This document shows positions 5,739-31,393 of a DNA stretch of 64,000 nucleotides, one piece after another. Source of the stretch: Escherichia phage kvi; the sequence record MN850615.1. One strand, given 5' to 3'. The position numbers and the translations under genes were made by a program. How positions within the stretch are numbered: position 1 is the stretch's first letter; the number at the start of each line of letters is the position of its first letter. The notes beneath the pieces are model-generated. The model saw only the letters and a list, made by a program, of their open reading frames with translations. It did not search any database and was not told the origin of the DNA.

Positions 5739-6953
5739 TTAAGCAGGATGCGTTTCACGAATGCGTAGAACTCGCTCTAACGTCTCTCGGTCCAGTTTAT
5801 GTAACTCTTTGGAATGATACATGAAACCATTGCGAGATTCCATGCAAGTGCAATCACTATATTTTTCTTCCGCTGCCGCGATTGTCTCCAGATCTTTGGC
5901 GTACTTGCTGGTTGAATAAACTTCTCGGTTACGCCACTCTAACCCAGCCTCATTGAATTTAACAATCTCGTCAAATACCCACCATCCAATGTAGATAAAT
6001 GAAGTTTTGCGCCACGGGATCGGGTGTACGTAACGAAACATTTTAACAACTTCCATTGAACATTTTCTACTTGTACTTGTTGCAACTTCTACTGTTTCAT
6101 CTTCGATCTGTTGATATAGTTTAGCAACACACCAGAATTTGGCTGTGTCATCGTAAGTAGCACTCTCTTTGAACAGATGACCGTCTGGAGTGATAGAAAA
6201 TCCTTCCAGTGCTTCGCCAACCTCACTACCGATCAGAGTCGGTGACATTTGCCCTTCGCGCTGCAAATACCAGTTATATTTGATCGTCAATTCAGGCATA
6301 CCGCTAGAATCGCCTACAATGTTCTCTGACACAACATAATTAAGTAAGATCTCATTACCTAGTGCCACGGTCTTTGATTCCACCACATCCTGATCTACGT
6401 TCATTGTTGCCAGCATGATTTTAGTCGATGCGCTAGCGGCTGAATCTTCCGACTCACCCCACACTTTTACAGTATACACGCCGTTTTTATCTGCTGTAAA
6501 TTCTTGGATCGTAATATCCTTTTTTGTGTCTATAACGTCATCGCCCTTACTCCAACTATAATGTAGTTCATAGTTGTCTGATGGAGTCTTCCCACCAGAA
6601 AATTTTACTGTTGCATGTAATTCTACGTTTGTTTGTGATGATACGTAGAAATGCTGCGGTTCGGTGATATTTACGATTAATTCAGCTTCTTCCATGAGGA
6701 AAACTTCAGATTCTACTGATGTCATCGTATCGGTATCCTGTACCGTTACTTTATAGCTACCCGCATTTTCACTTGTTGCGTCTGCTACAGTTAGCGTAGC
6801 TGTGCTATTTTCATGCGGTTGGTCGTCTTTTGTCCATGTATATGTCAAATTGCTGGGTAATGGTTCGTCACCCGCTACAGTCGCCGTTAAGGTGAAACCA
6901 TCTCCAGCAAGAAAACATCTTTTGTCAGATTTAATTGATACTGTGAAAGTCAT
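5739..6953 (-). CDS. hoc: Hoc, highly immunogenic outer capsid protein
   Basis: 404 aa; Ig-like repeats then C-terminal YVHPIPW..IGWWVFDEI..ESRNG motif as in recalled T4 Hoc. Confidence 0.85.
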   Translation of the reverse strand: MTFTVSIKSDKRCFLAGDGFTLTATVAGDEPLPSNLTYTWTKDDQPHENSTATLTVADATSENAGSYKVTVQDTDTMTSVESEVFLMEEAELIVNITEPQHFYVSSQTNVELHATVKFSGGKTPSDNYELHYSWSKGDDVIDTKKDITIQEFTADKNGVYTVKVWGESEDSAASASTKIMLATMNVDQDVVESKTVALGNEILLNYVVSENIVGDSSGMPELTIKYNWYLQREGQMSPTLIGSEVGEALEGFSITPDGHLFKESATYDDTAKFWCVAKLYQQIEDETVEVATSTSRKCSMEVVKMFRYVHPIPWRKTSFIYIGWWVFDEIVKFNEAGLEWRNREVYSTSKYAKDLETIAAAEEKYSDCTCMESRNGFMYHSKELHKLDRETLERVLRIRETHPA

Positions 6954-21759: not shown

Positions 21760-22278
21760 TTAGTTATTTTTTAATTGCTCATCTTGCAATAGGGCAATCA
21801 CATGCTGGCGATGTTCTTCCGATTGAGGCACACCGAAAAAGTTTGTTTTGTAGAAATACTCTAATCGGTCTTCTCGTGTGCTCTCTTCCATCATGATCGC
21901 GGGTAGTCCGAGATTTCTGAAACGTCGCTTTTCTGCTGGCGTAAAATCACTGTAATACAACATAGAATCATCATTACAAGCAATGCTAAACTCATCATTC
22001 ATAAAGGAGAATATTGCGTTTAAACGCTGTTTACCGTCCACGATTTCGATCTCATAGCGAGAGCCATCATCAATCTTAGCCATTGCGATAGCACCAACCG
22101 GAAAATCATTAATAAGGTTTTCGATAAACATACGTTTGTTTTCGGTGTCCCATACTAAAGGACGCTGATAATCTGGGTTCATGTTGATATAGCCATCTTC
22201 TAACCATGCATCATAAACAGAGATGACAAAGTTTTTAGTATTGGTATAGTAACGGCGTTTAGGCGTTAAACGGTTCAT
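21760..22278 (-). CDS. DUF262 / ParB-like (GmrSD N-terminal-type) domain protein
   Basis: 172 aa from ATG 22278; PDYQRPLVW and IVDGKQRLNAI match DUF262 signature; no nuclease domain. Confidence 0.6.
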   Translation of the reverse strand: MNRLTPKRRYYTNTKNFVISVYDAWLEDGYINMNPDYQRPLVWDTENKRMFIENLINDFPVGAIAMAKIDDGSRYEIEIVDGKQRLNAIFSFMNDEFSIACNDDSMLYYSDFTPAEKRRFRNLGLPAIMMEESTREDRLEYFYKTNFFGVPQSEEHRQHVIALLQDEQLKNN

Positions 22279-22279
22279 G

Positions 22280-22612
22280 TTATAGTCTCCTGAATGGATC
22301 ATCACGTAAATCAATATCTTTTAAGAACTCATCCCATGAATGCCGGATATTGTTCTTAATTCTCCAGATAAGCGCAGGGATTGAACGCTCTCCCATCTGG
22401 AAGTATGGATCATATGATCCGTATGCCCAATATGCTACTACAATTCCACAATCAGCGCAATAGTATTCTATTTCACTGGCTGGCGACCAAAGTCCATCAA
22501 TATGATCGGTGATCTTGCTTTCGATGTTATGGCTATGACAATCAGGGCAACGGATGCAATGACCTTGTTTATCGTAATTTGACGTTAGCGAATACTTAAA
22601 CAATCTCATCAT
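22280..22612 (-). CDS. Zinc-ribbon protein
   Basis: 110 aa; CIRCPDC ... CADCG; ATGATGA overlap with upstream gene. Confidence 0.55.
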   Translation of the reverse strand: MMRLFKYSLTSNYDKQGHCIRCPDCHSHNIESKITDHIDGLWSPASEIEYYCADCGIVVAYWAYGSYDPYFQMGERSIPALIWRIKNNIRHSWDEFLKDIDLRDDPFRRL

Positions 22613-23325
22613 AGATCCTTATTTGCTTCAAATACTGCCTTTGCGAATCCTCGCGGGGTAAGTGACCTGATAGTCTTTGTTTTCGTTCCTTTCCCGCCTA
22701 GCTTAGAATGCTGTTTACTGTACCCTTTATTAATCTGCAACGGTTTCTTTTCTGGCATTATAAAGCCTTGTCCGGTCCATAAGCAAGTCTTTTTCGGGTA
22801 CATATCACGGGCGGCGATATACTCAGGAAAAGTAGGATGTTTATCATCTTCCGGCAAATAACCGCCATATTCCCACGGGTGGAACATGTAATCAGGCTTA
22901 CGCCACATGCTAGAGATAACGCTTACAGGATTCTCTATCATGTAGGGAACTCCTAGCCATTCACCCAAATAAGCGGTTATTTTAGCTGCCCTTACATCAT
23001 GAACTTGAATCAATGGTCCTTGTTCTCGTTTCTTTCGTTCAAAGTGTGCAGCGCCACTAACAGCTAAATTGGTGCACGGTGGGAATGCAAAGATAATATC
23101 CGGTTTCCCCCATTCAAGGTCCATTGCTCTTTCCAGCCAGTTCAAATCAATCCAGGTGTTTACATAGGTAATGTTTGGATGTTCAAATCTGGTATTATAC
23201 TTTTTGTATGTGCCGTGGTCGCCATCATCAGCATTAAAGCAGATCACCTTATGACCTGCTTTAGCCCATTCTAGCCCCATTATCCCCGATCCGTCAAAGT
23301 TACAGAATATTAATTTTTGTTTCAT
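22609..23325 (-). CDS. Compact DNA C5-cytosine methyltransferase-like protein
   Basis: 238 aa; motif I FCNFDGSG, motif IV FPPCTN, motif VI MIENPV, C-terminal RSLTPRGFAKAV; very short variable region. Confidence 0.6.
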   Translation of the reverse strand: MKQKLIFCNFDGSGIMGLEWAKAGHKVICFNADDGDHGTYKKYNTRFEHPNITYVNTWIDLNWLERAMDLEWGKPDIIFAFPPCTNLAVSGAAHFERKKREQGPLIQVHDVRAAKITAYLGEWLGVPYMIENPVSVISSMWRKPDYMFHPWEYGGYLPEDDKHPTFPEYIAARDMYPKKTCLWTGQGFIMPEKKPLQINKGYSKQHSKLGGKGTKTKTIRSLTPRGFAKAVFEANKDL

Positions 23326-23815: not shown

Positions 23816-23855
23816 TGTTTGATTCTCCTAAGTGGTATCTCGTCTTGATGGTTGT

Positions 23856-23884
23856 ATTGTAGGGGAGTTATCCTCCCCTGTCAA
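23856..23884 (-). promoter_or_regulatory. Early promoter with palindromic spacer
   Basis: TTGACA-GGGGAGGATAACTCCCC-TACAAT. Confidence 0.6.
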
Positions 23885-23898
23885 TACTTTTTATAAAA

Positions 23899-24066
23899 TT
23901 ATTTGTTAATTTCTGGTGCGTTGCTAGGATAGTAACCTTCTTTAACACCCAGATATTTTGCAACCATTCCTACAATCTTCTGTGCTACTACAATGTCAAA
24001 TTTCAGATAATCTTCGCCGTGGGTTTCAATGATATATGCTTCACATGCTGCTTTAGTCTCGAACAT
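23899..24066 (-). CDS. Hypothetical 55-aa protein, paralog A
   Basis: MFETKAACEAYIIETHGEDYLKFDIVVAQK...; near-identical to 27180..27347. Confidence 0.45.
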   Translation of the reverse strand: MFETKAACEAYIIETHGEDYLKFDIVVAQKIVGMVAKYLGVKEGYYPSNAPEINK

Positions 24067-24099
24067 TTTGATTCTCCTATTTCGTTTCGGTATGTGTGT

Positions 24100-24128
24100 A
24101 TTATAGGGGATCTCCCGATCCCCGTCAA
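24100..24128 (-). promoter_or_regulatory. Early promoter with palindromic spacer
   Basis: TTGACG-GGGATCGGGAGATCCCC-TATAAT. Confidence 0.65.
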
Positions 24129-24142
24129 CAACTTTTTTAAAA

Positions 24143-24424
24143 TTATTCGTGATTAGTTTCGATGTTGTACATTTTGCACCAGTTCAGCCAATCGCCCAGA
24201 TCTTGATAGTTGATGCTTTTATCTGCTGCCATCGTTTTTGTCTTGATACCCATATGTGCGTTATGAGTAAGCATTTTTACAGTGAACTCAATTTTATCGC
24301 CTTTAGCTTTAACATCAACCAGTTTGGTCCACTGGCTACCAGCGCCGCGAATGTTCATACCAACGATGTTTCCGATGTATGCTTCTTTGTTTTTCAGGAT
24401 TTCGGTTGCTTTGATGAATTTCAT
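24143..24424 (-). CDS. Hypothetical protein
   Basis: 93 aa; conserved leader/SD. Confidence 0.55.
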   Translation of the reverse strand: MKFIKATEILKNKEAYIGNIVGMNIRGAGSQWTKLVDVKAKGDKIEFTVKMLTHNAHMGIKTKTMAADKSINYQDLGDWLNWCKMYNIETNHE

Positions 24425-24457
24425 TTTTGATTCTCCAGTTCGTTTCGGTATGTGTGT

Positions 24458-24486
24458 ATTATGCTATGTTCTTACTTTGGTGTCAA
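24458..24486 (-). promoter_or_regulatory. Early promoter (TTGACA-17-CATAAT)
   Basis: rc of TGTCAA..ATTATG with conserved leader. Confidence 0.6.
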
Positions 24487-24494
24487 CAACTTTT

Positions 24495-24764
24495 TTAGAT
24501 ATTTTCAGAAATAAATTTTAAAACTTGACGTAAATGTTTCTCATCTTTGATAGACGCCGGAAGTTCTTCTTTTACTTCCTGTGCAAGATAGATATTTCCG
24601 TTCCAAGTGAAAGATCCGTCTTCGTTTACGCGATAGCTGAACATCCACTCGCAATCATTTTCGATTTCATATACACACAGAAGGGTGTAATCGTTAAAGC
24701 TATTGATTTCAAGGTCGAAGCCGTGACGTTTTGCAAAGTTGGTAGTGGTTTTAGTCAGCGCCAT
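24495..24764 (-). CDS. Hypothetical protein
   Basis: 89 aa; AGGAGA SD. Confidence 0.55.
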   Translation of the reverse strand: MALTKTTTNFAKRHGFDLEINSFNDYTLLCVYEIENDCEWMFSYRVNEDGSFTWNGNIYLAQEVKEELPASIKDEKHLRQVLKFISENI

Positions 24765-24804
24765 TGTTTGATTCTCCTAAGTGGTATCTCGTTTCGATGG
24801 GTGT

Positions 24805-24833
24805 ATTATGCTATAGGCGTGATCTGGTGTCAA
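24805..24833 (-). promoter_or_regulatory. Early promoter (TTGACA-17-CATAAT)
   Basis: rc of TGTCAA..ATTATG. Confidence 0.6.
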
Positions 24834-24854
24834 TGTTTTTTTTAATTTTATGCA

Positions 24855-24881
24855 ATAAAAAAGCCGACGCTAAGGTCGGCT
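24855..24881 (-). terminator. Rho-independent terminator (- strand)
   Basis: AGCCGAC-GCTAAG-GTCGGCT followed on - strand by TTTTTTATT. Confidence 0.6.
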
Positions 24882-24938
24882 AATAAAATCATTTAGACAA
24901 ATAATCATTCTGCGCAATCCGGTCGGCGTATGCTGGTG

Positions 24939-25196
24939 TTATGTCAATCGCCAGCACTTTAACGCGTGCTTTCTTACGACCTGGTTTTCTCGTAACCAGT
25001 GCTCATGACCGTGAACATTTTTATACTGCGATGCTTCTTCGAAGGTACGGATCGGACCTGGGTAATCAGCGTAAAGGATCTCTAGATCTTCGGTGATGTA
25101 AAAATATACATCATAATGGCTGTTCTCTAGTTTAAGCAGAGAGTTGCGAAATTGTGGTAAATTCTCGCGGGTAAATTCAACTACAAGATTTTTCAT
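24939..25196 (-). CDS. HxHW-family small protein, apparently frameshifted/truncated
   Basis: 85 aa from ATG 25196; family motif HGHEHW present but conserved VLAIDI tail is in another frame ending at 24889. Confidence 0.4.
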   Translation of the reverse strand: MKNLVVEFTRENLPQFRNSLLKLENSHYDVYFYITEDLEILYADYPGPIRTFEEASQYKNVHGHEHWLRENQVVRKHALKCWRLT

Positions 25197-25219
25197 AGTG
25201 ATATCCTCATTCAGATAGA

Positions 25220-25243
25220 TTAAAAGGGGGGCGTTAATCCCCC
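25220..25243 (-). terminator. Terminator-like hairpin
   Basis: GGGGG-CGTTAAT-CCCCC with A/T flanks. Confidence 0.4.
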
Positions 25244-25248
25244 ATATA

Positions 25249-25536
25249 TTAAAACAGTCCTTCCTGTACACCGTAGTAGAGTTCGTCGCTGATAATTTCA
25301 TTAATGCGACGGTGTGCATATTCCTGATTTGCGAAGTTGTCAGCAAGTTCTACTTTAGTTTCGCCGTCATGAGTCCATTTAGTGATAACTTTACCATCTG
25401 CAAATTTGAAGTTGAACTCTTTAGCTACTGCATCGCGTACCAGACGTGCGAACTTGTTGTTACGGATTGCATTGTCTGTTTCGTTTGCAGCGTGAGCAAA
25501 TTTGTTAACTTTCAGAGTGATAGTAATGTATGCCAT
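25249..25536 (-). CDS. Hypothetical protein (AKEFN family)
   Basis: 95 aa; RLVRDAVAKEFN; paralog of 28564..28875. Confidence 0.55.
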   Translation of the reverse strand: MAYITITLKVNKFAHAANETDNAIRNNKFARLVRDAVAKEFNFKFADGKVITKWTHDGETKVELADNFANQEYAHRRINEIISDELYYGVQEGLF

Positions 25537-25582
25537 AATTTTATTCTCCTAGTTAGAAAGTGTATCTCGTTTCGATGGGGAT

Positions 25583-25611
25583 ATTATGCTATATCCCCGA
25601 TCCGGTGTCAA
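25583..25611 (-). promoter_or_regulatory. Early promoter (TTGACA-17-CATAAT)
   Basis: rc of TGTCAA..ATTATG. Confidence 0.6.
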
Positions 25612-25617
25612 CACTTT

Positions 25618-25896
25618 TTATAAAATAATTTTTTGATATTTTTCTATGATGTTCGTGTAAGTCACATCAACCGCTAGCACCGTTGCTTCGAATCCACCGT
25701 TTAGCCAATGGCTATGATCATGATCGTGAAAGAAACCTAGACCAGTACGAAGACCTTCTTTATATTCTGCGCGTACATTCAGTTTGTCGTCGATAAACAG
25801 ATAAAACCATGAATTTTTACTAGGATTGATGATACAACCTTTCAGATTAGGGAGAATATCACGACTAAGAATAAACTTATCACCTACTTTGAACAT
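25618..25896 (-). CDS. HxHW-family small protein
   Basis: 92 aa; FHDHDHSHW..VLAVDV. Confidence 0.5.
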   Translation of the reverse strand: MFKVGDKFILSRDILPNLKGCIINPSKNSWFYLFIDDKLNVRAEYKEGLRTGLGFFHDHDHSHWLNGGFEATVLAVDVTYTNIIEKYQKIIL

Positions 25897-25900
25897 AATA

Positions 25901-26221
25901 TTAGTCCTCACTTATAAGGTCAAACCAATTGTTTTTCGCATAATGCTTAATGCGTGCTTGATCTGCTTCCGCTGGTGATAGATTCCATGCAACCACTACA
26001 ACTTCTGACGCATCGTCATCCGTTTCTGATACCCAATGATTGTGATTCATACAGTTATTTGCTATCGAGTGAGCAAATGATTTCATCACTGGAGACGTAT
26101 AATCATAGTAACGGATTTTCAGATTTTCATCAACGTACAAATAGATCGTATAAGGTTTATATTCAGTAACCAGTAACAGACAGTTACGCAATTCTGGGAA
26201 AATCTTTTTAGTTAATTTCAT
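25901..26221 (-). CDS. HxHW-family small protein
   Basis: 106 aa; NHNHW..VVVVAWN; N-terminus similar to 24939 member. Confidence 0.5.
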   Translation of the reverse strand: MKLTKKIFPELRNCLLLVTEYKPYTIYLYVDENLKIRYYDYTSPVMKSFAHSIANNCMNHNHWVSETDDDASEVVVVAWNLSPAEADQARIKHYAKNNWFDLISED

Positions 26222-26222
26222 T

Positions 26223-26441
26223 TTATAATCCTCGGTCGCGGCTATAGTACACGGTACGCCATACAATTTCATGTTTCGTGTCGCTCCAGCACACGATCTC
26301 ATTTACTCTTAAATCTTTGTTATCAACAAAAGATGAACATTGTGACGCTTCTTTCATCATTTTATATGCTGTTTTCTCATCAAATACAGCACAGATTTCT
26401 TTATACACTCGATAATCTTTGAATTGACTCTGGATACCCAT
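26223..26441 (-). CDS. Hypothetical protein (paralog pair with 26401..26658)
   Basis: 72 aa from ATG 26441; FKDYRVYKEI..KMMKEASQC. Confidence 0.45.
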   Translation of the reverse strand: MGIQSQFKDYRVYKEICAVFDEKTAYKMMKEASQCSSFVDNKDLRVNEIVCWSDTKHEIVWRTVYYSRDRGL

Positions 26442-26658
26442 AATTAACACCATTCCAACCAATTGTTTTTGAGAAAACGTTTATCCACTGTTGAGTGTAG
26501 CATGTTTCTTTCCATGATACAATACGAGTAGAATAATGGTTTTTGTTTCCAGAAAAGGACGGGCATTTTGATGCATCTTCCATCATCTTTTCGGCGAACT
26601 CTGGTGCGTATACTCGCAGGATCTGTTGATATGCTTTGTATTCTTTAAATTTGCTCAT
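26401..26658 (-). CDS. Hypothetical protein (paralog pair)
   Basis: 85 aa; FKEYKAYQQI..KMMEDASKC; 3' end overlaps next gene in another frame. Confidence 0.45.
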   Translation of the reverse strand: MSKFKEYKAYQQILRVYAPEFAEKMMEDASKCPSFSGNKNHYSTRIVSWKETCYTQQWINVFSKTIGWNGVNYGYPESIQRLSSV

Positions 26659-26923
26659 AATCATTCACTACCTTATCAGCTTCTTTTGTTGTTTTTACAT
26701 CAACTGCGATAACTCGTAAATGTTCGTCATGGTTCCACCAGTGGTCATGAATATCAGCTTGTGATTTATCACCAAAGGAATCACGAATATCATTTTTACA
26801 TTTATAGCTAATGTGACCTTCATAGTCAACATAAAGGTAATTATCGAAAATCGGCGTTTTTAAGATCATACCGAAAAATCTTTCTTTGTGTGTCTTATCC
26901 AGCGTTGCAGTAATTCGCATCAT
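26645..26923 (-). CDS. HxHW-family small protein
   Basis: 92 aa; IHDHWWNHDEHLRVIAVDV. Confidence 0.5.
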   Translation of the reverse strand: MMRITATLDKTHKERFFGMILKTPIFDNYLYVDYEGHISYKCKNDIRDSFGDKSQADIHDHWWNHDEHLRVIAVDVKTTKEADKVVNDYEQI

Positions 26924-26935
26924 AATATATTCCTC

Positions 26936-27115
26936 TTAGAAAGGGATGGTCATTTCTTGAGCTTGTACATTCTCGTTAGGATTAAACTTCATCCAACCGA
27001 TATTGTCTACCAGCATATGCACATTTTTATCATATCCTACGTGGGTAGTCAATACTGTATGTGCTTTACCTTCAATGATGAGTTCCATGTACTTCTGAAC
27101 TTCGATAGCTTTCAT
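26936..27115 (-). CDS. Hypothetical small protein (59 aa)
   Basis: Not in track; conserved leader; downstream of promoter at 27148. Confidence 0.4.
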   Translation of the reverse strand: MKAIEVQKYMELIIEGKAHTVLTTHVGYDKNVHMLVDNIGWMKFNPNENVQAQEMTIPF

Positions 27116-27147
27116 TTTGATTCTCCGTTTGTTGTCTTGATGGGAGT

Positions 27148-27176
27148 ATCTTACTACTCCCTTTAATCATTGTCAA
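27148..27176 (-). promoter_or_regulatory. Early promoter variant (TTGACA-17-TAAGAT) with hairpin over -10
   Basis: GGGAGTAGTAAGATACTCCC palindrome overlaps -10. Confidence 0.5.
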
Positions 27177-27179
27177 CTA

Positions 27180-27347
27180 TTATTTGTTAATTTCTGGTGC
27201 GTTGCTCGGATAGTAACCTTCTTTAACACCAAGATATTTTGCAACCATTCCGGTGATCTTCTGTGCTACTACGATATCGAATTTCAGGTAGTCTTCACCG
27301 TGGTTTGCTACAATGTACGCTTCGCATTCTGCTTTAGTCTGGAACAT
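27180..27347 (-). CDS. Hypothetical 55-aa protein, paralog B
   Basis: MFQTKAECEAYIVANHGEDYLKFDIVVAQK...; duplicate of 23899..24066. Confidence 0.45.
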   Translation of the reverse strand: MFQTKAECEAYIVANHGEDYLKFDIVVAQKITGMVAKYLGVKEGYYPSNAPEINK

Positions 27348-27381
27348 TTTTGATTCTCCTATATCTCGTTGGTATGTGTGC

Positions 27382-27410
27382 ATTATAGGGGATCGGTGAT
27401 CCCCTGTCAA
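27382..27410 (-). promoter_or_regulatory. Early promoter with palindromic spacer
   Basis: TTGACA-GGGGATCACCGATCCCC-TATAAT. Confidence 0.65.
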
Positions 27411-27415
27411 CAACT

Positions 27416-27709
27416 TTATAATGCTTTATATGCGTATTTCATAAATTTGTCTGCCACTTCATTGGCATGTTCAGATTCTACGCCTGATTCGAGAACAATA
27501 GCTAGGTCGGTTTCGTCATTCCCGCCGTACCAATGATTTGATGTTCGATTTTTTTCAATTGGAAATTGGTCACTTTTATCTGTGCGACAAAATACATCTA
27601 AATGCTCGTCGATGTAAAAGATCCAATCTTCATAAAGAATAACGGTATTAGAAAGATTTTTATTGCCTTCAACGAAAGGTTCGGCTACAAACAAATTAGT
27701 ATGTTCCAT
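27416..27709 (-). CDS. HxHW-family-like small protein
   Basis: 97 aa from ATG 27709; YIDEHLD..NHWYGG..LAIVLESGV; GAGGA SD. Confidence 0.45.
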   Translation of the reverse strand: MEHTNLFVAEPFVEGNKNLSNTVILYEDWIFYIDEHLDVFCRTDKSDQFPIEKNRTSNHWYGGNDETDLAIVLESGVESEHANEVADKFMKYAYKAL

Positions 27710-27725
27710 AGTATTTTCCTCAAAA

Positions 27726-27917
27726 TTATACAGCTTCGTAAACTTCCCAATGTCCAACACCAGCACGCTTAACGAAAAGGTTTTCTTTGATGTTATTCAT
27801 AAACGTCTGGATGGATTTAATGCGATTTGAAGGTTTCCAGTCTTCGTTGGCATTGCGTCGATACATCATAACATTACCAGTTCGCTTATATTCAGCAACC
27901 ATTTTAAGACCACACAT
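27726..27917 (-). CDS. Hypothetical protein
   Basis: 63 aa; GAGGA SD. Confidence 0.45.
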   Translation of the reverse strand: MCGLKMVAEYKRTGNVMMYRRNANEDWKPSNRIKSIQTFMNNIKENLFVKRAGVGHWEVYEAV

Positions 27918-27966
27918 AATATTATCCTCAATTTGTGGGAGAGTATTACCCCTCCCAATGATTGTT

Positions 27967-27995
27967 ATGTTATATCACACAAAATGGCGTGTCAA
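27967..27995 (-). promoter_or_regulatory. Putative early promoter (TTGACA-17-TAACAT)
   Basis: -35 lies within the 3' end of the upstream gene. Confidence 0.4.
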
Positions 27996-28295
27996 TGCTT
28001 CTTTTGCGGTTCCGCTAAGACTTTCGATCTCGCCTGGCATAACATCAACCGCCAGAACTTCTACAACATCCTCGGACCCTAACCAGTGAGTATGACCTTT
28101 GTAGAACTTAATAACCAGACTACCTTCCTCGTCCCATTTAACGCTATCGCTAGCCCACCACACATCACCGTCGATAAAGTTGATGTAAAGCACACTACGC
28201 CACATTGAATTAATTACTTTCAATACTGCGCCTTTCATCTCTTCCACGGTATGGTCTTCCATTTTGAAGACCTCACCTACCTGAACTTTTGCCAT
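27975..28295 (-). CDS. HxHW-family small protein
   Basis: 106 aa; GHTHWLGSEDVVEVLAVDV; GAGGTG SD. Confidence 0.5.
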   Translation of the reverse strand: MAKVQVGEVFKMEDHTVEEMKGAVLKVINSMWRSVLYINFIDGDVWWASDSVKWDEEGSLVIKFYKGHTHWLGSEDVVEVLAVDVMPGEIESLSGTAKEALTRHFV

Positions 28296-28312: not shown

Positions 28313-28492
28313 TTACATAACAATCACGCCAGCCGTTGAAAGTTGATGTTTCAACTGAGCATTTTCTGCTACCGTCAAATCAATGATTTCTTGTGACGCT
28401 GCAATCATATAGCCATTGGTGATATTGTTTTGCATCAGTTCAATGGTTTCTTCGTTGTAGCGGATTTTAGCGATGATTTCGTTGAAGTTCAT
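28313..28492 (-). CDS. Hypothetical small protein (59 aa)
   Basis: True ATG at 28492; track ORF is extended upstream through the promoter palindrome. Confidence 0.45.
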   Translation of the reverse strand: MNFNEIIAKIRYNEETIELMQNNITNGYMIAASQEIIDLTVAENAQLKHQLSTAGVIVM

Positions 28493-28526
28493 AATTGATT
28501 CTCCTAGTTCGTTTCGGTATGTGTGT

Positions 28527-28555
28527 AGTATAGGGGATCGGTGATCCCCTGTCAA
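28527..28555 (-). promoter_or_regulatory. Early promoter with palindromic spacer
   Basis: TTGACA-GGGGATCACCGATCCCC-TATACT. Confidence 0.6.
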
Positions 28556-28563
28556 CAACTTTT

Positions 28564-28875: not shown

Positions 28876-28920
28876 TTTTGATTCTCCGTTTAAGAAAGTG
28901 TGTTTCGTTTTGATGTGTGT

Positions 28921-28949
28921 AGTATAGGGGATCACCGATCCCCTGTCAA
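28921..28949 (-). promoter_or_regulatory. Early promoter with palindromic spacer
   Basis: TTGACA-GGGGATCGGTGATCCCC-TATACT (loop inverted relative to 28527 copy). Confidence 0.6.
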
Positions 28950-28961
28950 CAACTTTTTGAA

Positions 28962-29438
28962 TTATTTTTCTTGATGCTCGCGATCGTACTTTTCGAAATA
29001 AAATTCTACTGGCTGGTCGTGGATTGACAGCAAGCCAAAGCGTTTAGCCGCTCGCAATCCCATATTGCGCTGAATGTACTTCTGGAAGTTCTCGCGTATA
29101 CACTTACGCCAGGATTCTAAGCCCATGCAGCTTTTATAAAGATTGCATTGCACACATGCCGGATTCATGTTATCAAGTATATCATGCTCCGGTTTATGCA
29201 TTCCTACAACCTTATACTTCCACGATCCATCATCATTACGGGCAATTCGTCCATTTTCATCATAGACAACCTTTGAGCGTCGTAATACTGGTTTGATATG
29301 GTCTGCGTGCCAGCGATCCCCTAGTTCCTCGCCACAATAGGCACAACGTCCACCGTATTTCATTTTCAGGATCTGACGTTGCTCTTTCTTTGACAATTTT
29401 TTAGGTTTAGGGGCTTTCGCCCCTTCATTATCACACAT
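28962..29438 (-). CDS. HNH endonuclease
   Basis: 158 aa; CAYCGE..WHADHIKPV..NMNPACVQCN; start overlaps ligase stop by 8 nt. Confidence 0.8.
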   Translation of the reverse strand: MCDNEGAKAPKPKKLSKKEQRQILKMKYGGRCAYCGEELGDRWHADHIKPVLRRSKVVYDENGRIARNDDGSWKYKVVGMHKPEHDILDNMNPACVQCNLYKSCMGLESWRKCIRENFQKYIQRNMGLRAAKRFGLLSIHDQPVEFYFEKYDREHQEK

Positions 29439-30927
29439 CGAATACCTCTTTTACTGTATTTGCAGCGGTCTTGTCGTAGCGAATACGTTTGATGATCGGG
29501 AGAAATAAAGAGAACTCCGGTTCATCTTCTTTACGTGATTTGCTGCGAATGTACCCGTTGCATGTCATCTCGATGACTTTTCCAATCAGGTTATGACGGT
29601 CAGCCCATAACATTTCTCGGTCAAGTTCATTTCGACGATCGAACGGAATTACACGTTCGATACCATCATCACCTTTTTCGGTTGTAGTGTCGGTTAATCC
29701 CGATCCGGTGTTAGTCATCATTCGTCCACACGCACTACGGACAGTAAAACCGCCTACCTTATTGGGGTCTTTACTATGCGGATATACATCAACAATTTCC
29801 GCGTCGAAGTCAATCACTTCTTTAAATTTAACCTGATCTTTACTACGGCGATCTTCAAATACACCATGTAAATTTTTAAGGATAATACCTTCTAAGCCCA
29901 TGTTGACATAACGATGATATACTTCGCGAGCTTCATCGATATTGTTAACTACAGTGTTTTCGATGATCTGAACACGAGGATCGTTAAGTTCTTCAACAAT
30001 CTGTTTTAGTTCTTCAAATCGATCTTTATATTGCTTCGTTGCTTTCTCGTTTCCGTAGTACACATCACGGTCGATAACATCCCAGACAGTGTAAACAATA
30101 CATTGGGCTTCTTCTTTTGGAATAGTTCCTTTCAGTGATTTGTTGAGGATACCATTTCCGGTCTGACGGTCTGCAACAACGGATTCTTTCACTGCTTCCG
30201 CTACTGGCGTTAATGGCATTTCCTCTTCTTCAAATATCCATGACAGAGTACCATCATAAACGCTCTCAACGAAGTTCTGCGCTGGTGTTTGCGAAAGGGT
30301 AGGCATATATACCAATTCACCATCTAGAACAATTCCACGGCCTCGTAGACGCTCTAAAACCGCAAACAAATCATCAAGTCCTTGATAGGTATTACCTGAG
30401 CGGGTATAGATTGCTAATGTTTCCCCGTCAATATCAGCCATACCACGAGCGCCATCGCTTTTAAGTTGTGCATACGCCGGATACTTGATATTAGCAATAG
30501 TCTTATCAGAACATGACGATGCAAGGTGACACGGTTGCTGGGGGATCAGTTTCTTCCATACCTTGTTTGCAGTGGTAGCGGAACAACCACATTCCAGATC
30601 ACGATTCAGGACCATCATTGCAACTTTAGCATCATCTTCTGACAAGCAAGTCAGAGTATCGGTAACTAGCTGTAATGCTGCGTTACCAGTTACTTGACGC
30701 GTGGCAAGTTTATTTTTAAAGACCTGTAATGCACCGGATAAAGACAATACAGACGAATAGCGAGATGGTTTATCGTATTTCTTTACGCCAAACGTAACCT
30801 GTTTGCAATATGCCAGATAAAAGCATTCTTTCAGTGTTTCATTGCTTGCAGATTCTTTCAGGATCTTTTCTTTCAGCGATGTTTTGTCGGTCGCTGCAAG
30901 CTGGTTAATGATATTAAGAATTGACAT
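29431..30927 (-). CDS. 30: ATP-dependent DNA ligase gp30
   Basis: 498 aa from ATG 30927; KVW..LIPQQP..LASS, AQLKSDGAR (KxDG), LDGELVY, EGIILKN, KFKEVID as in T4 ligase. Confidence 0.9.
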   Translation of the reverse strand: MSILNIINQLAATDKTSLKEKILKESASNETLKECFYLAYCKQVTFGVKKYDKPSRYSSVLSLSGALQVFKNKLATRQVTGNAALQLVTDTLTCLSEDDAKVAMMVLNRDLECGCSATTANKVWKKLIPQQPCHLASSCSDKTIANIKYPAYAQLKSDGARGMADIDGETLAIYTRSGNTYQGLDDLFAVLERLRGRGIVLDGELVYMPTLSQTPAQNFVESVYDGTLSWIFEEEEMPLTPVAEAVKESVVADRQTGNGILNKSLKGTIPKEEAQCIVYTVWDVIDRDVYYGNEKATKQYKDRFEELKQIVEELNDPRVQIIENTVVNNIDEAREVYHRYVNMGLEGIILKNLHGVFEDRRSKDQVKFKEVIDFDAEIVDVYPHSKDPNKVGGFTVRSACGRMMTNTGSGLTDTTTEKGDDGIERVIPFDRRNELDREMLWADRHNLIGKVIEMTCNGYIRSKSRKEDEPEFSLFLPIIKRIRYDKTAANTVKEVFDV

Positions 30928-31393
30928 TTTCACCTCGTTTTGTTAAACGTTCACGAATATCATTGAGGATACTACAAAATTCCGATTCAGTCAATATAGT
31001 CTTTAACGGATCAGTTCCACCTATGCTATGACGCAATTTCTTATTTCCGGTAGCGAGTAATGCTTTACAAAATTCTGGGTTATTCCGTGCCATCGTAACA
31101 AATGCCAGATGTACCAGTCTGTAATAATGCTCACTCATTCGATGAATAGGGCGACCCTGAAAATATAACATGTGATTCTCAATCTTTTCAGTTCTTCCGG
31201 TTCTTTTTGCTTTGCCACCGTGCATCAAAAAGATTTCTCTTTGTCTCTGAGGGTTCTTAAATCTTAGCCCCTGTAAAAATCCTTCTGTGCTGTTAATATC
31301 GCAACCAAATAGACGGAATGGTCTTTTATTGAAATTACTCAATTCACCCGATGGATAAGGTCCACCCGCATAGATATCAATTTCAGAAGTCAT
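30914..31393 (-). CDS. NADAR (DUF1768)-like protein
   Basis: 159 aa; GGPYPSGELSNFNKRPF..EGFLQGLRF..EHYYRLVHLAF fits the NADAR/YbiA pattern. Confidence 0.55.
   Translation of the reverse strand: MTSEIDIYAGGPYPSGELSNFNKRPFRLFGCDINSTEGFLQGLRFKNPQRQREIFLMHGGKAKRTGRTEKIENHMLYFQGRPIHRMSEHYYRLVHLAFVTMARNNPEFCKALLATGNKKLRHSIGGTDPLKTILTESEFCSILNDIRERLTKRGENVNS

Follow-up and report, generated by a model that had tools for sequence, protein, structure and literature searches.

A family of six diverged small proteins with an invariant His-Trp motif in the hyperplastic early region of Escherichia phage kvi

The 64,000-nt stretch of Escherichia phage kvi analyzed here (sequence record MN850615.1; hereafter the window) comes from an RB49-like genome of the genus Krischvirus, family Straboviridae, and carries six small genes, here called copies A to F, on the minus strand of a hyperplastic region bounded by ligase and methyltransferase genes. 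A first-pass annotation made from the sequence alone had listed these six open reading frames (ORFs), and all of them are present on that strand, each with an ATG start preceded at 6-9 nt by a GAGG Shine-Dalgarno sequence. They are copy A (24939-25196; 85 residues, with an out-of-frame C-terminal remnant to ~24889), copy B (25618-25896; 92 residues), copy C (25901-26221; 106 residues), copy D (26645-26923; 92 residues), copy E (27416-27709; 97 residues), and copy F (27975-28295; 106 residues); the orthologs in RB49 are ORFs 197, 199, 200, 203, 206, and 208, respectively. The block as a whole corresponds to RB49 ORFs 190-211, every one of which is annotated as "hypothetical protein," and 58 GenBank phage records match the 4.1-kb block at 90-99% identity, all of them Escherichia or Shigella RB49-like Krischvirus. 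The six proteins have no hydrophobic segments. Their isoelectric points, 4.5-6.9, speak against a general affinity for nucleic acids.

The six genes are true, diverged paralogs, with 20-35% identity between copies, and constitute a single family with one fold and one invariant motif. Pairwise BLASTP gave 54 bits for A-C (C being the nearest paralog of A), 31 for A-F, 28.5 for B-D, and 25 for both B-F and A-D. Each copy is recognized by a profile of the other five: when a copy was left out of the hidden Markov model (HMM), it scored 53 (A), 41 (C), 31 (F), 27 (B), 23 (D), or 15 bits (E), above the shuffled controls: 999 shuffled versions of that copy reached 8-17 bits at best. Alignment with the family profile (hhalign) gave 98.7-99.8% probability for all six copies and no more than 2.4% for any of the window's other ORFs. 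Together the leave-one-out, shuffle, and hhalign results show that the family is real and rule out chance motif matches. Profile search and hhalign found no seventh copy in the window; similarity between rb198 and rb210, considered as an additional pair of paralogs, was not significant. The same proteins are found in the PHROGs database, at E 1e-48 to 1e-72, split into five groups (phrog_9345 for A and C, phrog_17255 for B, phrog_15972 for D, phrog_15965 for E, and phrog_16486 for F), of which weak cross-matches (E 7e-5 to 0.01) join three or four; the family described here unites all five.

The histidine cluster ending in His-Trp, by which the family was first noticed, holds in part. The His and the Trp that close the cluster (HW) are invariant among 18-23 diverse members, and the rest of the cluster is not. 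The first His of HxHW, present in NHNHW of copy C, IHDHWW of D, and GHTHW of F, is ~90% conserved and is missing in kvi copy E (TSNHW) and in two E-type relatives, while the additional histidines of copies B (HDHDHSHW) and A (HGHEHW) are copy-specific and differ between orthologs. A (V/L)(L/I)AVDV tail had been proposed as a second shared feature; it is exact in B (VLAVDV), D (VIAVDV), and F (VLAVDV), and degenerate in C (VVVAWNL) and E (IVLESGV). Copy B also has a KOW-like N-terminus, MFKVGDKF.

Copy A of kvi differs from its orthologs by a 1-nt deletion near 24985 (AAAACCC to AAAACC), directly after HWLREN, which puts the final 15 residues out of frame; the normal tail is still encoded downstream. 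The 85-residue product is identical to the annotated kvi_65, whereas the intact copy A of RB49 and kaaroe has 102 residues and ends in VKVLAIDITPAYADRIAQNDYLSK, with the tail VLAIDI. The missing nucleotide may reflect either a true mutation or an error in sequencing the homopolymer. Copy A of phage JSE carries an independent frameshift.

AlphaFold models were made for two of the six copies and agree on one shared fold (F: pLDDT 87.6, pTM 0.80, alignment depth 18 sequences; E: pLDDT 84.6, pTM 0.80, alignment depth 22 sequences). Both models run through a strand, a short helix, three strands, a long loop containing the HW turn, a further strand that corresponds to the VLAVDV segment, and a C-terminal helix; E, although the most diverged member by sequence, has the same order of elements as F. 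In outline, five predicted beta-strands, which probably make an SH3-like small barrel, lead into a loop or 3-10 turn with the (H)xHW, and a last strand and the C-terminal helix follow. No significant structural match was found to known SH3-like small barrels (KOW, Tudor, FeoA, and the DtxR C-domain), from which the family differs in its much longer loops, its added C-terminal helix, and an HW site that has no counterpart there. Foldseek returned nothing from the PDB at E < 0.3; from BFVD it retrieved family members and otherwise weak matches (TM 0.40-0.52, prob 0.87-0.92) to two other uncharacterized phage proteins, of which Providencia phage PSTRCR_114 encodes one.

Sequence-based comparison likewise left the family apart from well-characterized proteins. 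A profile search against PDB sequences gave no match, nor did the family match Pfam, NCBIfam, or the defense systems of PADLOC, and all PHROGs matches are of "unknown function." Single weak matches (PROCT, TTL, T4_Y03C, and others) each touch one of 23 members and were rejected. The H-S/T-H tripeptide and a sub-threshold PROCT match of copy B recall the JAB/MPN (JAMM) metalloproteases, but the E...H-x-H-x7-S-x2-D motif combined with the MPN fold is not found here. The histidine triad (HIT) motif, H-phi-H-phi-H-phi-phi, is also absent: three alternating histidines occur in B only, where the spacers are polar (HDHDHSH), and the remaining copies have two or one. The literature searched mentions neither the proteins nor their locus tags or accessions.

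Outside Krischvirus the family is all but absent. Among 5.8 billion protein clusters, a word-indexed search retrieved nothing beyond orthologs of the six types, which lie on contigs of 164-176 kb; an exhaustive search with the profile, run against 1.84 billion representative proteins, gave 21 matches at E <= 1e-3. Two of these, a 1034-residue MAM-like repeat protein and a 1440-residue OmpA-type repeat protein, are spurious, since their scores are summed over repeats; the other 19 are proteins of 57-128 residues plus one 203-residue tandem fusion. A tblastn search with the most distant relatives against 50,697 GenBank phage records retrieved Krischvirus only, two scans of IMG/VR, each with a single family protein, gave no match, and no T4 counterpart was found near gene 30.

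Metagenomic relatives, at ~28-60% identity, are type-specific orthologs on several contigs, each distant relative having one clear best-matching type among A to F. A 2.1-kb contig encodes an rb209-like protein, an F-type copy, an rb204-like protein, a two-domain fusion, a D-type copy, and a C-type copy, five family domains in total. The fusion (823-1434 of this contig, from metagenome SRR8048117) consists of two tandem family domains with HNHW in each, and the pairing of the rb209-like gene with F, and of the rb204-like gene with the next family member, is also kept there. A 20-kb contig, whose ligase is 72% identical to that of kvi, has the same kinds of small genes in its ligase-to-alt interval, among them two family members only, both E-type. 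Because each copy has its own ortholog in diverged relatives, the subfamilies predate these phage lineages, with copy number varying by lineage. Among the six genomes compared with kvi, copies A to F stand in the same order in five (kaaroe, RB49, GEC-3S, JK32, and Skers). In the sixth, JSE, copies A and E are frameshifted, and B and C are replaced by two divergent C-like genes. An 88-residue protein adjoining F in JSE (EpJSE_00215, 6612-6878 of the JSE stretch) has GNGH instead of HxHW; its predicted structure resembles F by Foldseek (TM 0.54-0.64, prob 1.00), the hhalign probability is 17%, and it is possibly a remote family member without the motif.

The first-pass annotation had read the six copies as the product of repeated duplication under diversifying pressure. 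The data do not support this: the copies are only 20-35% identical and form old subfamilies, and ratios of nonsynonymous to synonymous substitution (dN/dS, by the Nei-Gojobori method, kvi window against six relatives) are 0.05-0.3 for the family genes, the values for A being distorted by its frameshifted tail. Neighboring genes fall in the same range. Within ortholog groups, variation and indels are clustered in the loop that leads into HW on its N-terminal side, while the motif and the strands are constant; in copy E the dN of this loop is 0.46-0.51, against 0.04-0.15 elsewhere, with dS also saturated and the ratio below 1. With dN/dS below 1 both for whole genes and for the loop alone, positive selection was rejected. 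Background dS between genomes is ~0.1, and some family alleles are far more diverged: copy D of GEC-3S has 57% protein identity to kvi (dS 1.9), and copy E has 68% in GEC-3S and JK32 and 82% in Skers. Whole alleles of C, D, and E have been swapped among phages that are otherwise ~95% identical. The non-family neighbor rb201 shows deep allelic replacement too (64% identity in GEC-3S and JK32), so such allele or cassette exchange is typical of the region and nothing special to the family. Frameshifted copies (A in kvi and JSE, E in JSE, and possibly B in phage TB34) indicate that individual copies are dispensable. From these comparisons we favor an old duplication maintained by purifying selection, with a loop that is tolerant of change or exchanged.

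An early-block location had also been proposed, and it is supported by the near-consensus sigma-70 promoters on the gene strand, which are PeSL cassettes (promoter plus stem-loop) of the RB49/phi1 type. This strand has eight 11-12/12 matches to TTGACA-N17-TATAAT, most of them with a spacer that contains a GGGGATC...GATCCCC stem-loop; a conserved leader and a Shine-Dalgarno sequence come next. A PeSL promoter at 28527-28555 (minus strand, as are all those that follow; TTGACA-17-TATACT, with the GGGGATC/GATCCCC stem-loop) by position heads the rb209-like gene, F, the rb207-like gene, and E. A weaker, PeSL-like promoter (10/12) at 27148-27176 by position heads the rb204-like gene, D, the rb202-like and rb201-like genes, C, and B, which are tightly packed or overlapping. 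An 11/12 PeSL promoter at 25583-25611 by position heads the rb198-like gene, a hairpin, A, and a terminator. The hairpin, a terminator-like G/C stem-loop with a T-run (25227-25243), lies between the rb198-like gene and A, where the GEC-3S record annotates a terminator, and it may attenuate expression of A; a second terminator-like hairpin (24862-24881) is found just past the end of full-length copy A. A perfect 12/12 PeSL at 27382-27410, directly downstream of E, is the equivalent of RB49 PeSL206/205, a very strong promoter by experiment (~13,000 Miller units), and the stem-loop of RB49 PeSL211/210 terminates as well as rrnB T1 (PMC2839356).

The PeSL is repeated as an intergenic element of ~70 nt at 23835-23896, 24063-24135, 24437-24498, 24784-24845, 25562-25623, 27345-27417, 28490-28562, and 28884-28961. 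Its layout is an AT-rich tract, TTGACA, the G/C stem-loop, a TATAAT-like box, the conserved leader, and the Shine-Dalgarno sequence; on the gene strand it is read as a spurious ORF prefix, MLTGDHRSPI.HTY. The PeSL ORFans described from the same region, with the same sigma-70 and stem-loop cassettes and the same gain and loss (Arbiol et al. 2010, PMC2839356), share with the six family genes the hyperplastic location and a PeSL promoter on the gene strand; they differ in being single-gene cassettes directly flanked by PeSLs, whereas each family gene is second or later in a multi-gene unit. That study concerned the regulatory cassettes and their shuffling, not the proteins, and paralogy among these ORFs is mentioned neither there nor in the other PeSL paper or the five-genome T4-like comparison.

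Several neighboring genes merit description. One flank of the block has a C5-methyltransferase-like gene (22609-23325), annotated as a DNA methyltransferase, whose 238-residue product contains an FPPC motif yet has no Pfam match at E <= 0.01. Two genes away, a stand-alone GmrSD_N (DUF262, ParB-like) protein of ~172 residues is encoded at 21760-22278 (Pfam, 72.5 bits). The other flank has an HNH endonuclease gene and the gp30 DNA ligase gene (28962-30933). Between D and C, in the same operon, the rb201-like (26223-26441) and rb202-like (26401-26664) genes are overlapping paralogs (40% identity, 52 bits). Two 55-residue genes, of the RB49 ORF191 type (23899-24066) and the ORF205 type (27180-27347), directly follow one PeSL each. 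Their products share 89% identity and their DNA 87% across 172 nt; this is a duplication much younger than that of the His-Trp family. Comparison of 24100-24900 and 28880-28962 with RB49 showed that ORF192 (158 residues, signal-peptide-like), ORF195, ORF196, and ORF211 are not in the kvi window; such cassette differences fit earlier descriptions of insertion and deletion through PeSLs in RB49 and phi1.

It is firmly established that these are lineage-restricted, anciently duplicated, small early-region proteins with an invariant His-Trp and under purifying selection. As to function, we tentatively prefer, at somewhat less than even confidence, to regard the six ancient paralogs as a phage-specific early family, each member of which most likely binds or inhibits a host factor. 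Transcription would begin within minutes of infection, from internal positions in short PeSL-driven operons, and each product would act as a stoichiometric binder or inhibitor, for host takeover or counter-defense. The invariant HW loop may be a common contact or ligand site, while the hypervariable, indel-prone loop before it would set target specificity, so that several diverged copies are kept while single copies can be lost. Such a model fits best with the early operon position, the small, soluble, acidic proteins, the conserved site beside a variable loop, and the several retained specificities combined with dispensable single copies. We infer early expression, the binding function, and the role of HW; an anti-defense or host-takeover role is a reasonable guess from context. 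Several observations weigh against this model. Early expression of the six genes is deduced from promoters; each unit has some other gene next to its promoter, and A sits behind a terminator-like hairpin. The dN/dS values, below 1 even in the variable loop, lack the signature of an arms race; the 20-kb relative with two copies indicates that six are not required; and the searches gave no homolog of known function and no significant structural analog. The invariant His-Trp might just as well belong to a catalytic or ligand site.

The first-pass annotation had suggested metal binding from the histidine cluster, and a family of small metalloenzymes, metallochaperones, or metal-dependent binders is conceivable in which HxH coordinates Zn, Ni, or Fe together with an acidic side chain from the Y-I-D-E strand or with a second subunit. 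We consider this unlikely; the alignment of diverse members has two conserved His, one of them not invariant, and no column that would supply an invariant third ligand. The paralogs might instead, though this seems rather improbable, act as sponges that take up small molecules, for example nucleotide immune signals or cofactors, every copy having a ligand of its own. In the manner of the Tad and Acb anti-defense proteins, the Trp would stack on a base and the His would contact phosphates. Structural scores against AcrIIA7 (8kbi) and the anti-Thoeris sponge Tad2 (9eib), which we take to form one family (DUF2829), were not significant, and the Pfam domain common to these two had no match in the 23 family members at E <= 10. 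A different arrangement, in which the paralogs bind one another as subunits of a single assembly, would accord with the retention of all six copies in fixed order in five of six comparison genomes, with the packing or overlap of D, rb202, rb201, C, and B (which suggests translational coupling), and with the relative in which two domains are fused in one protein. However, copies are lost one by one (A from kvi, A and E from JSE) or replaced (JSE B and C), one relative has two copies only, and the fusion of neighbors 4 nt apart is a trivial event, so we give hetero-oligomers little credence.

Two further readings stand lower still. The genes could be nearly neutral or functionless ORFans riding recombinogenic PeSL cassettes, since the hyperplastic region is one in which cassettes come and go (PMC2839356) and frameshifted copies exist. 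This was already disfavored by dN/dS values of 0.05-0.3 over dS up to ~1.9, and the motif is invariant among copies 20% identical while type-specific orthologs persist in phages with a ligase 72% identical; we regard it as very improbable. Least probable of all is that the proteins are components of a Krischvirus cytosine hypermodification pathway, as the C5-methyltransferase-like neighbor might suggest. Krischvirus SAP is reported to have glucosyl-methyl-dC without a recognizable synthase or glycosyltransferase, and TB34, 99.96% identical to SAP, to have plain cytosine (PMC13390438, 2026). Copy B, intact in SAP and all other relatives, has a +1 frameshift just before HW in TB34, where an additional T at ~5430 (SAP 5431) changes CTGGTCTAGG to CTGGTTCTAGG. 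The SAP/TB34 table, however, includes ~38 other coding "frameshifts," among them ones in DNA polymerase, sliding clamp, topoisomerase, and ribonucleotide reductase genes; the link through copy B of TB34 was dropped because a table with frameshifts in essential genes is dominated by sequencing error. The C-to-T "SNPs" in the same variant list are all in proline codons, which suggests base-calling artifacts. The proteins, moreover, do not resemble TET/JBP dioxygenases or glycosyltransferases and fall short of the size that such enzymes need, and the sole other link is proximity to the methyltransferase-like gene.

A more far-reaching reading is a new fold with an HW site for one defined ligand, which would be a metal, a nucleotide signal, or a conserved element of a host immune protein; the paralogs would then act as a multi-specificity counter-defense battery. 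Some might do so as hetero-oligomers, as the natural two-domain fusion suggests. This reading is unlikely; if true, it would represent a new class of anti-defense protein specific to RB49-type phages. To our knowledge, T4-like hyperplastic regions hold many early ORFans, thought to serve adaptation to hosts and their defenses, of which almost none has a known function. RB49-type DNA is without the known hydroxymethylation and glucosylation genes of T4, and Krischvirus phages are present in therapy collections; the absence of the T4 DNA-modification genes makes their early counter-defense repertoire of practical interest.

The family merges five "unknown" PHROG groups and has a confidently predicted fold with no solved relative, and its invariant His-Trp with the adjoining variable loop is a concrete, mutable target for screening. 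Although nothing yet shows an unusual mechanism, it is a clean, structurally novel, and experimentally tractable family of ORFans. If its members are binders or sponges of tunable specificity, they would add a new scaffold to the anti-defense catalog; otherwise, they provide a clean case of an old, stably kept multigene family amid rapid cassette turnover.

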